Source of the DNA: Planctomycetaceae bacterium
Lineage (GTDB): Bacteria; Planctomycetota; Planctomycetia; Pirellulales; UBA1268
Reading direction: 5' to 3'
DNA length: 42,615 bases
Assembly (NCBI GenBank): GCA_018694455.1
Contig: JABHNP010000304.1
Coordinates: 1-42,615, forward strand
Shown: one piece after another, positions 12,592 to 18,061 of the stretch
Numbering within the stretch: position 1 is the first letter of the stretch
Layout: every line of letters begins with the position of its first letter
The notes under the pieces: generated by a model
Databases searched by the model: none
Seen by the model: the letters and a program-made list of their open reading frames with translations, nothing else
Told to the model about the DNA's origin: nothing
Position numbers and translations under genes: made by a program

Positions 12592-13884
12592 CTACTTTCT
12601 GCCGACACAGTACACGGCTTTGGTTGAACGAAAAATAATGCGGCCCTGATCAAATGCAGGTGTTGCATTGAATTGCTCATCTCCGTCGCCGAGTTTGTTT
12701 TCAGCAAGAATGGTGTGCTCAGGATCTGCTGCCATGACGACACATGTGCCATCACGGAGTTGTGCGTAGAGCCGTCCGTCTCCTAGAACAAGTGATGCGT
12801 AGACACGGTCACGAGATTCGTAGCGTTCACGAAAGAGGGTGCTGCCGTCTTCTGCATTGAGGCACTGGGCCATTCCCTTATCATGTGACCAGAATAAGTA
12901 GCCGTTATGAAATAAGGGGGTTGTGACGTTTGCTCCCACGGTTACTTCCCAGAGTTTGTGCGTCTCTGTCACGTCACCGCGGCCACCGGCCCGTACGGCA
13001 ATCGTTCGATTTTGTCTGCCACCTGAACAGTAGAGAGTGTCATCCACAACAACAATGCCTGGGACGACATAGTCGGGAATGCCTCGGCAGGTCCAAAGAA
13101 CATCACCAGTTTTTGGGTCGTATCCGCGGATGAGTTCCTTGTGGTGCATGACGAGTTCAGGTGTTCTGTTCTTGGGAGTGACAATCGTTGGCGTTGTCCA
13201 AGCCTTATTAATGTCTTCAACCTGCCAGACAATTGCTCCGGTGTCTTTGTCGAGGGCGACGAGTGCATTCGATTCAATTGCAGCGTTTATATAGATAAGC
13301 CCTTCATAGGCAATCGGTGAAGCGGCTGCGCCAAAGCCGGCAACACCGGTGCCGATACTTGTTCTCCAGAGTTCTTTCCCATCAAGTGAACAGCAGACAA
13401 CCCCAGATGGTCCAAAGGCGGCATAGATTTTCTTGCCATCAGTGCAGGGTGTAGGGGAGGCATAGCCATGATCTGCGACCCGAGGCGTTGCTTCCTGCTC
13501 TTCAGAAGAAGGGTCAAGCGTGAGTGTCCACTTTGGGGTGCCATCTTTTCGAGAAATTGCAATGACGTGGAGTTTTAGGCTTTCGCGTTCTCCTGGATCA
13601 TCAAGCTTTTCTCCGTATCCGCTATAACCCGTGAACACAATCAAGTCCTTCACAAGAATTGGACAACTTGAGCCACGAGCAACAGGAGTCTTCCACAGGA
13701 GGTTCTTGTCGTTTGACCAGGTCACCGGCAGCGTACCTGTATTCTCGGCGACTCCAGTGCCGTTCGGTCCACGGAACCGACCCCATGATTCTGCAAACGT
13801 TTTCGTGGCAGTTGTAGCGCACAGTGCGTACAAGAAGAACGTAGCCCATTTCAATAGTAGGCCATACGGTACATGATTACGCAT
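12592..13884 (-). CDS. PQQ-like (BamB-like) beta-propeller repeat protein, exported
   Basis: 430 aa with a signal peptide. The WGRFRGPNGTGV motif follows directly, as is typical of the expanded planctomycetal PQQ-like propeller family. Repeated blade segments (e.g. G..VW...). The gene starts 19 nt after the DUF1501 stop. Confidence 0.85.
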   Translation of the reverse strand: MRNHVPYGLLLKWATFFLYALCATTATKTFAESWGRFRGPNGTGVAENTGTLPVTWSNDKNLLWKTPVARGSSCPILVKDLIVFTGYSGYGEKLDDPGERESLKLHVIAISRKDGTPKWTLTLDPSSEEQEATPRVADHGYASPTPCTDGKKIYAAFGPSGVVCCSLDGKELWRTSIGTGVAGFGAAASPIAYEGLIYINAAIESNALVALDKDTGAIVWQVEDINKAWTTPTIVTPKNRTPELVMHHKELIRGYDPKTGDVLWTCRGIPDYVVPGIVVVDDTLYCSGGRQNRTIAVRAGGRGDVTETHKLWEVTVGANVTTPLFHNGYLFWSHDKGMAQCLNAEDGSTLFRERYESRDRVYASLVLGDGRLYAQLRDGTCVVMAADPEHTILAENKLGDGDEQFNATPAFDQGRIIFRSTKAVYCVGRK

Positions 13885-13903
13885 CGGCTGGTCTGCTTTC
13901 TAA

Positions 13904-15205: not shown

Positions 15206-15262
15206 AAGATTTCTCCAAGTAGTAAAGTTTCTTTTTGATTCGTTGTGGCGAACGTGCCAGGA

Positions 15263-18061
15263 CTAATGATTGAGGGCAAATTCTTTGGTGTTGAGTAAAG
15301 CCCAAAGAATATCGCGAAGTCCGTCTTTGGCAGTCGGTGATTCTTTGAGGTACGCGATCGATCGGTCGATTTCACGATCAGTTGGCTGTCGGACAAGTGT
15401 ACGTAAATAAGCACTGTCAAGAATGTCACGCACTTGGTCTTCATTCTCTGTAACCCATTCTGAAACAGAGCCGTCAAAAACACTGCCAGTGTTCGGCTCT
15501 TTTATTGTCGCTTCTTTCACAGCGATTGCTTTTTTGATTGATTTGATTGTGGTCTTGTTGTTTTTCTTGACGGCGTATTCCAGTCTTTTGTTGAGCTGTG
15601 CAATTTCGTTTGTCAGCTTTTGCTCTCGCTCTATCTTCAATTTTTCAGCGGCAGGGTCGTTGAAATCGGGAAGTGTTTTGGTGAGTTCATCAAGCCAGCT
15701 GCCCCGACGGCTAATGGAGTCAAGCATCTCTTTGTCGTTCTGAAGGAAGACTGTCTGAAGCAGGCTTGGCTCCATAGAACGGTCGCAGTCACAGTTACTT
15801 TCACGCGTGGATTGCCCAAAAATTTCGAGGGCGTAATTGTTGTTGTACGAGCCTACGGTTGTGTCAGCAATTGCACGCTTTTCCACGAGTGAACACAGCT
15901 CCATGGCTTCACGATCACCAGCGGTTGCTGTTCTGACCGCATCATAAATGACTTCAGCTGGAATTCTTCGAGCAATTGCTCGGCTGAAGTTTCTGTCATC
16001 ATGAAGATTTGTCGCATTGGGCCTCCACCCACGTTGGTAGGTGTCGCTCTTACAGATCTCACGATGAAGCCACTTCATGTCGAAGTTGTGTTCTCGAAAT
16101 CCTTGAGCGAGATATTCGAGTAACTTAGGATTGCTCGGAGGGTTTGCCAGGCTGAGGTCATCTGGTGGTTCAACGATTCCAACGTTGAAGTACGATGACC
16201 AGACACGATTCACAAGTGATTGCGCAAAATACGGGTTCGAGTCATCAAGCATCCAAGCCATAAGAATCTCACGCGGGTCTTCAACTTCGTCCACGTTCAT
16301 TTGTTTGCCACCAAGGACTGTTGCCGTGCGCCCCATGAGAAATCTTTCAAGCTGTTCCTTTTTCTTTGGCTTTATATCTTTTGCATTCATCTGGGCCATG
16401 AGGCCATCGAGTTTTGCTTTATTCAGTGGTGCTTTTGCCGGTGTTACGATGACCTCACCAAAGGGAACAGTCTTCCCTTTCTGGGCAAGTTTTGCGAGTG
16501 CGACGTAGAGCCTGTTTCCCTTTAAATCCTTGTCGTTCATGTCGATGCCAAGCGTAACGAGCATTTCTTTGTAGGTTTTCTGGTTTTCTTTGCCAGAACC
16601 TTTGCTCGCATACGCAACGCGGGTAAAGAATCCCTTGAATCGATCAAAGTCGTCTTTCGTCCACTGATCGAACGGATGTTTGTGGCATTGGGCACACTGG
16701 ATACGGACGCCTAAGAACGTATACGCAAATCCAAGTGCCTGTTCCTCTGGTTTTCGGAAGTTTTGTCGAGTCCAGAAATAAGGGAGATACGGTTGGTCGC
16801 CAAATGATGCATCCCCCTCATTTACAAGATAACGGCTCATTCGTTCGCTGTACTCGGTAAATGATTCACCCTCAAGTCTACTTTTTGCGAGAACAATGCC
16901 TGTTACAAGTTCATCGTAAGGCACGTTTTCGGTGACTTTCTTGTGCATCCATTCGTACCAGAATCGAGAGGCACCTTGCCGTCGCTCGGGCCCGCTGTTG
17001 CTCTGATTACGATCATTGTTTCCTGTCCAGTCACAAAGTTTGGTTGCCCACCATGCGGCATACCCCGGTCGTTCGAGTAATTCCTCAATTTTTGTATCTC
17101 GTTTATTCGGTGACGTGTCACTGAGAAATGCTTCTGTTTCTGCAACTGGTGGGAGCGTGCCAGTGATATCGAGTGATGCTCTACGCAGAAATTCACCATC
17201 GCTGCAAACTTCCGATGGAACTTCACCGAGCTTACGCAATTTCATCGCAACGAGTTCATCAACCGGCGTCGGTGTCTTGAGATCTGGATACTCGGACCCA
17301 GTCTTGTCGGAGACAGGAAAGATAACTGGTATTGGAACCACGCCATTGTCATAAAACGCAACGACATGACTGTCTCCCGGACCTTTTGCCGTGACAAAAC
17401 CATTCTCATCAATGTCAGCAATCTGATCATTATTTGTACGGAATCGGCACAGAGGCGTAACGTCTTCATGCGTGCCATCAGACCATACCGCTGTTGCCTT
17501 GAGTTGCCAGGTCTGACCTTTTTTCTGTGCCACAATTTCAGCGGGTGAAACGTCGAGTCGAACAAATGCTGCGTCATCGTCATCGACTCCCTGAGCGCCG
17601 TGTTCGATCCACTGTTTGAGAACAGCGAGTTGCCAACTGTCAGGATCAAGTACCTGGCCACCTCCATGGTCAACTTGCTCAAGAGGTTTCTGGAGAAAGA
17701 GGCTGGCTTCCAAGTTGTCGATATTGACGCGAGGTTCTTCACCCTGCAGGAGATTCTCGTGGTCTGCCTTAAAGTCATAACCGAATAAGGAAAGTCGGAA
17801 ATCACCCTGGCCCTGGAAAGAGCCATGGCATGCTCTGCCGTTACAACCGAGCCGTCCCATAAGTGGCACGACATGTCGGCGAAAGTCAGGTGACTCGTCC
17901 TCGTTCACTGCGTTCTCTGCAGTCTGTGCGAATCGCATATCAAGTGATGGCACAGGGTCTCGTTCCGTTGCCGTCGCTGGTAGACAGAAAAGGCAGCACA
18001 ATGATATGGCAACCATAACTATTGGTGCATTCGAGCTAATCTTTAAGTGATGGTAAGTCAT
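15263..18061 (-). CDS. DUF1549(PSCyt2)/Ig-like/DUF1553(PSD1) protein
   Basis: Likely start is ATG 18061 (MTYHHLKISS... plus a hydrophobic signal). The track extends to 18181. Motifs: GCNGRACHGSFQGQGDFRLSLFGYD; a Big_2-like segment (LDVSPAEIVAQKKGQTWQLKATAVWSDGTHEDVT); EFLRRASLDITGTLPPVAETEAFL; CAQCHKHPFDQW; and the C-terminal ILWALLNTKEFALNH. Confidence 0.92.
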   Translation of the reverse strand: MTYHHLKISSNAPIVMVAISLCCLFCLPATATERDPVPSLDMRFAQTAENAVNEDESPDFRRHVVPLMGRLGCNGRACHGSFQGQGDFRLSLFGYDFKADHENLLQGEEPRVNIDNLEASLFLQKPLEQVDHGGGQVLDPDSWQLAVLKQWIEHGAQGVDDDDAAFVRLDVSPAEIVAQKKGQTWQLKATAVWSDGTHEDVTPLCRFRTNNDQIADIDENGFVTAKGPGDSHVVAFYDNGVVPIPVIFPVSDKTGSEYPDLKTPTPVDELVAMKLRKLGEVPSEVCSDGEFLRRASLDITGTLPPVAETEAFLSDTSPNKRDTKIEELLERPGYAAWWATKLCDWTGNNDRNQSNSGPERRQGASRFWYEWMHKKVTENVPYDELVTGIVLAKSRLEGESFTEYSERMSRYLVNEGDASFGDQPYLPYFWTRQNFRKPEEQALGFAYTFLGVRIQCAQCHKHPFDQWTKDDFDRFKGFFTRVAYASKGSGKENQKTYKEMLVTLGIDMNDKDLKGNRLYVALAKLAQKGKTVPFGEVIVTPAKAPLNKAKLDGLMAQMNAKDIKPKKKEQLERFLMGRTATVLGGKQMNVDEVEDPREILMAWMLDDSNPYFAQSLVNRVWSSYFNVGIVEPPDDLSLANPPSNPKLLEYLAQGFREHNFDMKWLHREICKSDTYQRGWRPNATNLHDDRNFSRAIARRIPAEVIYDAVRTATAGDREAMELCSLVEKRAIADTTVGSYNNNYALEIFGQSTRESNCDCDRSMEPSLLQTVFLQNDKEMLDSISRRGSWLDELTKTLPDFNDPAAEKLKIEREQKLTNEIAQLNKRLEYAVKKNNKTTIKSIKKAIAVKEATIKEPNTGSVFDGSVSEWVTENEDQVRDILDSAYLRTLVRQPTDREIDRSIAYLKESPTAKDGLRDILWALLNTKEFALNH

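Follow-up and report, generated by a model that had tools for sequence, protein, structure and literature searches.

Three genes follow one another on the minus strand of the window, i.e., the whole 42,615-nt stretch that was analysed, which belongs to a 3.2-Mb, 95%-complete Pirellulales MAG with about 24 PSD1/DUF1501 pairs. According to the ORF list and Pfam, they encode a large PSD1-type protein (15263..18061), a DUF1501 protein (13904..15205), and a PQQ_2 propeller protein, here propeller 1 (12592..13884). A gap of 57 nt with a GGAG-like sequence ahead of the DUF1501 ATG (15206..15262, minus strand) separates the first two genes, and 19 nt (13885..13903, minus strand) follow the DUF1501 stop before the propeller gene begins; direct reading of the sequence bears out the order, strand and gaps given in the first-pass annotation. 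All three products carry export signals: Sec in the large partner and the propeller, Tat in DUF1501. The triad shares a divergent intergenic region of 350 nt (18062..18411) with an upstream plus-strand sulfatase gene (18412-20121); sulfatase and GH genes abound in the window. Judged from sequence, this region likely holds the promoter of the three genes. Promoter and terminator scans of the locus gave scores no better than on shuffled sequence, and no terminator-like site was found on the minus strand within the triad gaps.

The second set, also on the minus strand, comprises a PSCyt1/PSCyt2/F5_F8_type_C/PSD1 protein gene (32929-35754), a DUF1501 gene (31420-32922), a sulfatase fusion (27483-31340), a sulfatase (25751-27460), and PQQ_2 propeller 2 (24413..25672, with the ORF also listed to 25738), all assigned by Pfam. 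As first described, sulfatases are inserted between DUF1501 and the propeller across 24413-35754: propeller 2 lies 5.7 kb downstream of DUF1501-2 (Tat motif RRSFLK), beyond two sulfatase genes. The set had been taken for a second copy of the same core. Pair 2 is only 26-27% identical to pair 1, and propeller 2 is 26% identical to propeller 1; a recent duplication is rejected on this identity, which places the two sets as old paralogues from different subfamilies.

The two proteins of the pair

The PSCyt and PSD1 domains are said to come from Studholme et al. 2004. The full ORF of the large partner (15263-18181, 972 aa, P0001) matches PSCyt2 (8.5e-47), PSD1 (4.7e-39), and Big_2 (0.0017) in Pfam. 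Alignments to orthologues start between residues 35 and 72, so translation likely begins at M41 (position 18061), which gives a protein of 932 aa with a Sec signal peptide, a PSCyt1-like N-terminal domain, Big_2, PSCyt2, and PSD1. Within PSCyt2, translation and alignment reveal the haem-c type motif CAQCH (CxxCHxHP; 16682..16696, minus strand), in which C456, C459, H460, H462, and P463 do not vary among 33 aligned sequences that include distant paralogues. The motif of the N-terminal domain is Cx4CH (C-N-G-R-A-C-H within GCNGRACHGSFQGQG; 17825..17845, minus strand); it is kept in 27/27 aligned orthologues, one of which spells CSNRACH, and in the nearest own-genome paralogue, on contig C23, as GCNMGSCHG. 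The CxxCH-type motifs attributed earlier to the large partners are thus present internally in copy 1 and in copy 2 (CWHCH and CARCH), but not at the N-terminus of copy 1. PSCyt1 has no Pfam match in copy 1; residues 59-211 of P0001 align weakly (E 0.001) with the copy-2 PSCyt1 region, with Cx4CH opposite CxxCH.

The Ig/discoidin-like modules were recovered by Pfam as Big_2 in copy 1 and F5_F8_type_C in copy 2. Big_2 is backed by Foldseek and by PDB sequence matches of the PSD1 protein, which are Big_2 repeats of teneurin-like proteins. The AF2 model (pLDDT 80) has an all-alpha body with no PDB match at E<=1e-3 (Foldseek with the whole model matched Big_2 only). NCBIfam holds no model for either PSD1 or DUF1501.

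The DUF1501 protein of pair 1 (433 aa) matches its Pfam family at 7e-101 (338.6 bits vs a cut-off of 27). Its translation contains the twin-arginine motif RRDFLK (15155..15172, minus strand), in which R12 and R13 are nearly invariant across the paralogue alignment, and TatC is present in the genome. The top Foldseek matches of its AF2 model (pLDDT 78) are S1 sulfatases and LtaS, the fold being shared with S1 formylglycine sulfatases and alkaline-phosphatase-superfamily hydrolases at a Foldseek probability of 1.00 and TM of 0.34-0.42. Alignment to the sulfatases of the window (hhalign, 94.6%) covers the C-terminal half only; there the metal-ligand region aligns, with DUF1501 EFGR opposite sulfatase SDNG. 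A PDB sequence search with DUF1501 gave marginal sulfatase matches only (E 0.2). Unlike the S1 sulfatases, DUF1501 has neither the C/SxPxR motif nor a Pfam match to PF00884 (Sulfatase), and CxPxR is absent from the translations of both DUF1501 proteins. Classification as an S1 formylglycine-dependent sulfatase is therefore rejected, and the earlier description of a Tat-exported member of the sulfatase superfamily lacking CxPxR stands.

Invariant or near-invariant positions in the DUF1501 alignment are D61, D64, H116, E256, D295, H297, E339, R342, R353, H355, and D379; no Ser, Thr, or Cys is invariant among 22 DUF1501 paralogues. The invariant H116 opens the helix after the second core strand of the AF2 model. 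For the genes of the triad, identity to their orthologues is 97-98% for DUF1501, 80-89% for PSD1, and 88-90% for the propeller. DUF1501 is thus the slowest-evolving of the three, which would fit a catalytic core.

Conservation of the pair and its relation to known modules

Orthologues of DUF1501-1 are 54-100% identical, occur in many families, and are clearly separated from paralogues at about 45%. PSD1 lies directly upstream of the orthologue in 28/28 and 20/20 loci (48 loci in other genera), usually with one detectable copy of the group per genome. By sequence, pair 1 is a distinct orthologue group, widely conserved across the order. Pairs of this type are indeed very common, as first noted, with 24 copies in this genome, 26-64 in three complete relatives, and presence in 150/151 genomes of the order. 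The statement that no function has been demonstrated agrees with the literature, in which no functional study was found; papers naming the pair call its function unknown (PMC3542564; PMC5615132).

DUF1501 together with PSCyt/PSD1 proteins was described as a 'conserved genetic module' in Planctomycetes, Verrucomicrobia, and Lentisphaerae (Kamneva et al. 2012, PMC3542564), and PSCyt2 genes were reported to adjoin a family of unknown kind (He et al. 2017, PMC5615132). Pair 1 shares with this module an adjacent, conserved PSCyt2/PSD1 protein, the many copies per genome, the twin-arginine signal on DUF1501, the CxxCH motif in PSCyt2, and an accessory binding domain (Big_2). It differs in the Cx4CH domain that stands in place of a Pfam PSCyt1 in copy 1 and in the PQQ_2 propeller that follows in this clade, 'PQQ' and 'propeller' occurring zero times in those papers. 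The pair-1 locus is accordingly classed as an orthologue of this two-gene PVC module, known since 2012.

A four-gene cluster has also been described, consisting of DUF1501, a PPC protein, PSCyt1-Big_2-PSCyt2-PSD1, and PSCyt1-WD40 (Kamneva et al. 2012, PMC3542564). Within this genome, the closest paralogues of pair 1 are the DUF1501 (39% identity) and PSD1 (35%) of such a cluster, which is found on contigs C226 and C23. The Cx4CH-Big_2-PSCyt2-PSD1 architecture is common to both, and the cluster, too, includes a beta-propeller protein. However, the gene order is different, and propeller 1 is of the PQQ_2/BamB type, with neither a haem domain nor WD40 repeats. PPC and PSCyt1-WD40, both encoded on C23, are absent from the pair-1 locus, which is hence not a four-gene cluster.

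The propeller and its association with the pair

Propeller 1 (430 aa, Sec-exported) matches Pfam PQQ_2 at 6e-21 (75.6 bits), and both a CxxCH motif and a quinoprotein signature are absent. A role as PQQ-dependent dehydrogenase is rejected, because PF01011 reaches 25 bits over 39 residues (cut-off 26.7), TIGR03075 scores 19.5 (cut-off 480), and the protein has 430 aa vs the 595 positions of the PF01011 model. TIGR02111 (PqqC) matched nothing in this 95%-complete genome, but it was equally silent in the control genomes. The lipoprotein BamB (YfgL), a propeller with eight blades, belongs to the machine that assembles outer-membrane proteins. The blades of propeller 1 are similar to it in sequence (PDB matches at E 1e-10 to 1e-9; Pfam PQQ_2), but no lipobox is read in the sequence, the propeller family has 12-16 paralogues per genome, and a close homologue occurs in only 50/151 genomes of the order. 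Score (51.7 vs 285.2 bits for TIGR03300, 39.7 vs 423 for PRK11138), copy number, and patchy distribution rule out propeller 1 as the organism's own BamB.

Among the 151 genomes, a close match to propeller 1 was found in the same genus only (90%), the rest being at most 45% identical, and the family's other 8 genomes gave none at E<=1e-90. A homologue at 57% identity is a lone propeller gene beside unrelated, opposite-strand genes, while one at 52% sits after a ThuA/NPCBM/DUF7133 protein; the neighbours of 21 propeller homologues from other families are heterogeneous, with no common partner. The propeller adjoins DUF1501-1 only in loci L001, L002, L004-L014, and L018 (DUF1501 84-98% identical), that is, in this genus and three metagenome contigs. 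Flanks are syntenic within the genus and different in L001, L002, and L014. Elsewhere it is absent from the pair-1 orthologous loci, both the 28 viewed to 1.5 kb downstream and the 20 viewed to +/-9 kb.

The propeller had also been proposed as a recurrent third partner, with genome-wide co-occurrence statistics suggested as a check. In three complete genomes with 147 DUF1501 and 103 PQQ_2 genes, none of the two lie within 500 nt of each other and 11 lie within 5 kb vs 9.4 expected, so that adjacency is not enriched. In this genome, only 2 of the 16 propeller ORFs are on a contig that also carries one of the 24 DUF1501 genes; two sporadic DUF1501/propeller neighbourhoods in other families (L079, L082) point the other way. 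The propeller of pair 2 is kept in position only in a same-genus genome (G103), the pair-2 orthologues in G026 and G140 having kept the sulfatases and no propeller; about 0.4 same-strand propellers are expected within 7 kb downstream (hand estimate from 16 propellers, 24 DUF1501 genes, and 3.2 Mb), which is about what is seen. Adjacency beyond chance thus holds for the pair (48/48 loci), not for the propeller outside one narrow clade, and the proposal of a recurrent partner is not upheld, lack of enrichment across genomes being what the first-pass annotation had itself named as refuting.

Within that clade, pair and propeller might still form a genuine periplasmic machine of three parts, the propeller having been recruited to the PSD1/DUF1501 complex for docking or for presenting substrate, with a role like that of PSCyt1-WD40 in the four-gene module. 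With propellers of 72-90% identity, the triad stays in order in three flanking contexts that are unrelated to one another; at least three contexts, the 19-nt gap, and the lack of a terminator-like site make it resemble a real operon partner, and this counts against the view of the propeller as an add-on. So does the beta-propeller (PSCyt1-WD40) of the nearest paralogous module (C226, C23), which shares the Cx4CH domain and suggests that a propeller partner may be a recurring need, and pair 2 in this genus also has a downstream propeller. Nevertheless, the missing haem motif, the stand-alone close homologues, the 48/48 propeller-free orthologous loci outside the clade, the lack of genome-wide enrichment, and the chance-level pair-2 case make a three-part machine unlikely.

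Sulfatases, envelope neighbours, and the reading of the locus

The divergent upstream sulfatase and the sulfatase/GH-rich window would also fit a module in which pair, propeller, and neighbouring sulfatases act on one sulfated polysaccharide, the link favoured by the first-pass annotation. Sulfatase is the next same-strand gene after DUF1501 in 4-5 of about 13 readable cases in this genome, and the same tendency exists in Verrucomicrobia (He 2017, PMC5615132). Genome-wide, the linkage depends on the genome: in sulfatase-rich G026, 10/26 DUF1501 genes have a sulfatase within 5 kb (3.9 expected, P=0.002), whereas G065 shows 1/57 (2.6 expected). For pair 1 itself, a sulfatase is near 1/20 orthologous loci, the upstream sulfatase is missing from a same-genus contig (L008), and the conserved neighbours elsewhere are an ECF sigma factor, a coiled-coil protein, and an LTXXQ protein. 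Sulfatase linkage is therefore not a property of the pair-1 orthologue group, and a shared sulfated substrate is very unlikely.

Most probably, the locus is an orthologue of the known module in which the conserved pair is the functional unit and the propeller a lineage-specific add-on, with no particular tie to sulfated glycans. The propeller gene, normally stand-alone, would have ended up 19 nt behind the pair in this genus and in the uncultured lineages closest to it, and there it probably shares a transcript with the two genes. The two conserved proteins would form a periplasmic complex, to which the large subunit would contribute a binding module and a c-type haem, while the invariant Asp/His/Glu residues of DUF1501 would make up a metal centre. 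The invariant CxxCHxHP and the haem-attachment (CcsA-type cytochrome c assembly) and Tat genes of the genome speak for this model of the pair. The propeller would be at most a protein-docking accessory, not a general third component.

In other families, the order is ECF sigma / anti-sigma-like / coiled-coil protein / PSD1 / DUF1501 / LTXXQ (Spy/CpxP-like), with coiled-coil proteins at 12/20 loci, ECF sigma factors at 9/20, and LTXXQ proteins at 6/20; none of these three neighbours was found in this genome at E<=1e-5 (tblastn, single example queries). That the group is an ECF-sigma-controlled envelope module and not a glycan enzyme is decidedly unlikely. If true, the slot after DUF1501 would hold interchangeable periplasmic accessories (LTXXQ in several families, a BamB-like propeller in this genus, PPC and PSCyt1-WD40 in the sister module), and the task of the haem/metalloenzyme pair would be to maintain the envelope or to repair it under stress. 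Such a role would fit Rhodopirellula baltica, where the stress-induced ECF gene RB10049 lies beside RB10051 (PMC2754498), likened to the large partner as a PSD1 protein only.

Few gene families in Planctomycetota and Verrucomicrobiota are as abundant as the PSCyt/PSD1 and DUF1501 pairs and still lack an explanation. A genuine third partner would have given the search for their function a narrower focus, and in general the BamB-like propeller does not play that part. The pair-1 group, being order-wide, often flanked elsewhere by ECF sigma and LTXXQ genes, and sister of the published four-gene WD40 cluster, offers a lead for choosing which pair to study.

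Gene layout and relationship of the two sets

Contig C345 (42.6 kb), which is the entire window, belongs to a MAG of 3.19 Mb in 421 contigs (95% complete), whose close relatives carry the label Pirellulales bacterium. The triad on its minus strand consists of a PSD1 protein (long ORF at 15263-18181; PSCyt2, 8.5e-47; PSD1, 4.7e-39; weak Big_2), DUF1501-1 (13904-15205; DUF1501, 7e-101), and propeller 1 (12592-13884; PQQ_2, 6e-21), with intergenic gaps of 57 nt (PSD1/DUF1501) and 19 nt (DUF1501/propeller). As alignments of the long PSD1 ORF with its orthologues start at residues 35-72, a start at 18061, which yields a 932-aa product with a signal peptide, fits. 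The second set comprises a PSD1 gene (32929-35754), DUF1501-2 (31420-32922), two sulfatase genes, and propeller 2 (24413-25738). The triad gene order, the gaps, and the second set, all described in the first-pass annotation, are borne out by the ORFs, the domain matches, and the gaps read off the sequence. A 1285-aa protein at 27483-31340, part of the neighbouring ECF cluster, combines a sulfatase domain at its N-terminus with a region that matches GH42 faintly.

The triad had also been taken for a second copy of the core; the two sets are not recent copies, sharing 27% identity between DUF1501-1 and DUF1501-2, 26% between the propellers, and, over separate segments, 26-32% between the two PSD1 proteins. 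The MAG encodes 24 DUF1501 and about 25 PSD1 ORFs, almost all as adjacent pairs of two subfamilies, and 12-16 propeller paralogues, just two of which, both in the window, are on the same contig as a pair. Genome comparisons published between 2004 and 2017 described the pair and its variants (Kamneva et al. 2012, PMC3542564; He et al. 2017, PMC5615132; Wecker et al. 2009, PMC2754498). No functional study of the PSCyt/PSD1 and DUF1501 module was found in the literature, in agreement with the earlier statement that the pair has no demonstrated function.

Features of the three proteins

The PSD1 protein of pair 1 contains a C-NGRA-CH motif close to the N-terminus and CAQCH within PSCyt2. The former, Cx4CH, is conserved in all 27 aligned orthologues (in one as CSNRACH), and the CxxCHxHP of PSCyt2 is invariant in the PSD1 alignment; the MAG carries a CcsA-type haem-attachment gene and TatC. 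Solved-structure relatives of the AF2 model (pLDDT 80) cover Big_2 only, the large all-alpha PSCyt2 and PSD1 body having no PDB match at E≤1e-3. An 81% identical orthologue (P0129, a JGI record) bears the name 'phosphopantetheinyl transferase (holo-ACP synthase)', evidently a misannotation.

DUF1501, the slowest-evolving of the three triad genes, is reflected in the window by a protein that starts with RRDFLK and has no CxPxR in its translation, so that the Tat motif and the missing formylglycine motif attributed to the small partner both hold. The best PDB matches of the DUF1501-1 model (AF2, pLDDT 78) are S1 sulfatases and LtaS (E ~1e-5, TM 0.34-0.42), and hhalign aligns DUF1501 with the window's sulfatases in the C-terminal half only, placing EFGR opposite the sulfatase SDNG, which we take to be a metal-ligand motif. 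Among 22 DUF1501 sequences, D61, D64, H116, E256, D295, H297, E339, R342, R353, H355, and D379 are invariant or nearly so, while an invariant Ser, Thr, or Cys is lacking (S58 is retained in 17/20). In the model, the invariant H116 starts the helix next to core strand two on its C-terminal side, the position of the nucleophile in enzymes of the alkaline phosphatase superfamily. Such an arrangement would point to a chemistry unlike that of classic sulfatases or phosphatases. Propeller 1 resembles BamB at the level of blades, but scores far under the BamB and quinoprotein family cut-offs and contains no CxxCH.

From the domains, the signals, and the gene order, we infer a periplasmic complex in which the PSD1 large subunit would carry c-type haem and bind its target via Big_2, while DUF1501, crossing the membrane through Tat in folded form, would be the catalytic subunit and depend on metal. 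In the triad clade, the propeller would be expressed together with the pair as a docking accessory, or else be a passenger.

Restriction of propeller adjacency to a narrow clade

Across the order, the orthologues of DUF1501-1 clearly stand out as a group (54-100% identity), separated by a gap from the paralogues at about 45%. In every locus with 84-98% DUF1501 identity, namely the same-genus-level loci L004-L013 and L018 and the metagenome contigs L001, L002, and L014, the propeller directly follows DUF1501. At 28 loci outside the genus, from other genera or families and with 59-75% identity, DUF1501 always has PSD1 upstream and never a propeller within 1.5 kb downstream; likewise, 20 orthologous loci outside the clade, read to ±9 kb, all keep the pair intact and have no adjacent propeller. 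Searched against 151 genomes of the order, propeller 1 has one close match (same genus, 90%), the rest reaching at most 45% identity, and none at E≤1e-90 in the family's eight other genomes. The homologues with 57% identity stand alone between genes of the opposite strand, one at 52% sits after a ThuA/NPCBM/DUF7133 giant protein, and 21 homologues (38-52%) have mixed neighbours, with DUF1501 within 6 kb in three. In three complete genomes, each of a different family outside that of the MAG (147 DUF1501 and 103 PQQ_2 genes), no DUF1501 and PQQ_2 genes lie within 500 nt of each other, and 11 such combinations fall within 5 kb (9.4 expected under random placement, P=0.34). Propeller 2 is retained after the sulfatases only in a same-genus genome; in G026 and G140, the pair 2 orthologues (79-80% identity) are flanked by sulfatases, with no propeller within ~12 kb. 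Because of these orthologous loci, the 151 genomes, the three complete genomes, and the pair 2 orthologues, the propeller does not stand as a recurrent third partner: no enrichment beside the pair is found at large scale, an outcome that the first-pass annotation had itself named as refuting.

The rival and less likely reading, a three-part system of pair 1 and propeller, finds its best argument in a sister module. Kamneva et al. (2012, PMC3542564) described clusters of DUF1501 / PPC / PSCyt1-Big_2-PSCyt2-PSD1 / PSCyt1-WD40. The MAG holds one such four-gene cluster, divided by a contig break: the DUF1501 gene lies at the end of C226 (L064:6656-8065), and C23 (L062:159-7359) encodes the PPC protein (850 aa), PSCyt2/PSD1 (833 aa), and PSCyt1-WD40 (688 aa). 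Within the MAG, pair 1 has its nearest paralogues in the DUF1501 and PSD1 of this cluster (39% and 35% identity), and both PSD1 proteins share the N-terminal Cx4CH (GCNMGSCHG in the cluster, GCNGRACHG in pair 1). Pair 1 is therefore sister to a module in which a propeller partner is present. In the narrow clade, moreover, the triad stays while the flanks of L001, L002, and L014 differ completely from those of the window, the propeller begins 19 nt after DUF1501, and a promoter/terminator scan found no terminator-like site within the triad; judged from sequence, co-transcription of the triad within this clade is likely.

Several propeller contexts deserve mention in their own right. The nearest homologues outside the triad clade (57%; L094:6001-7296 and L095:6001-7263) have another conserved context in common: a radical-SAM/CofH_C gene is oriented divergently to them, and genes for an ECF sigma factor and for a Ser/Thr kinase-TPR protein are close by. 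Propeller paralogues or homologues adjoin ThuA-domain proteins at two unrelated sites, a stand-alone protein in the MAG (C283, L069:1664-2827) and a ThuA/NPCBM/DUF7133/HEAT giant in Neorhodopirellula pilleata (L003:5375-9928). L014 (RFVC01000064.1), labelled 'Gammaproteobacteria bacterium', carries a Pirellulales-type triad (DUF1501 92% identical) and is probably a mis-binned contig.

Sulfatases and other neighbours of the pair

A tendency toward sulfatase neighbours was noted by He et al. (2017, PMC5615132). In the MAG, a sulfatase is the next same-strand gene after DUF1501 in 4-5 of ~13 readable cases, the others being followed by a propeller, a DUF7133/F5_F8 protein, an MFS transporter, an arginine decarboxylase, an M24 peptidase, or a DUF1559 protein. 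The proposed sulfatase link stands in genome G026, where 10/26 DUF1501 genes have a sulfatase no more than 5 kb away (3.9 expected, P=0.002; 119 of 131 sulfatase genes included), but fails in G065 (1/57, 2.6 expected) and in the pair 1 orthologous loci (1/20, ±9 kb). The tendency is real in some genomes and is no property of the family or of the pair 1 orthologue group. Unlike the window (18412-20121), the same-genus contig L008 has no sulfatase gene between AhpC and PSD1, so the divergent sulfatase is dispensable beside pair 1.

Clustering of neighbour genes at the 20 orthologous loci revealed an ECF sigma factor (Sigma70_r2, r4_2) upstream in nine, a signal-anchored coiled-coil protein without a Pfam family directly upstream in 12, and an LTXXQ-motif (Spy/CpxP-like) protein immediately downstream in six (26.5 bits, cut-off 24.3). 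None of these neighbours was found in the MAG by tblastn with single-example queries; the slot held by LTXXQ elsewhere is occupied by the propeller in the window's genus. A frequent order in L096-L115 is ECF sigma / anti-sigma-like / coiled-coil protein / PSD1 / DUF1501 / LTXXQ, an arrangement more suggestive of envelope stress than of glycan processing. Heat, cold, and salt are reported to induce the R. baltica ECF gene RB10049, which adjoins the gene of the PSD1/PSCyt2 protein RB10051 (Wecker et al. 2009, PMC2754498). The window locus adds an ordinary member to a known, functionally unexplained family, and what is distinctive here is the genus-level juxtaposition of the known pair with a PQQ_2 propeller.
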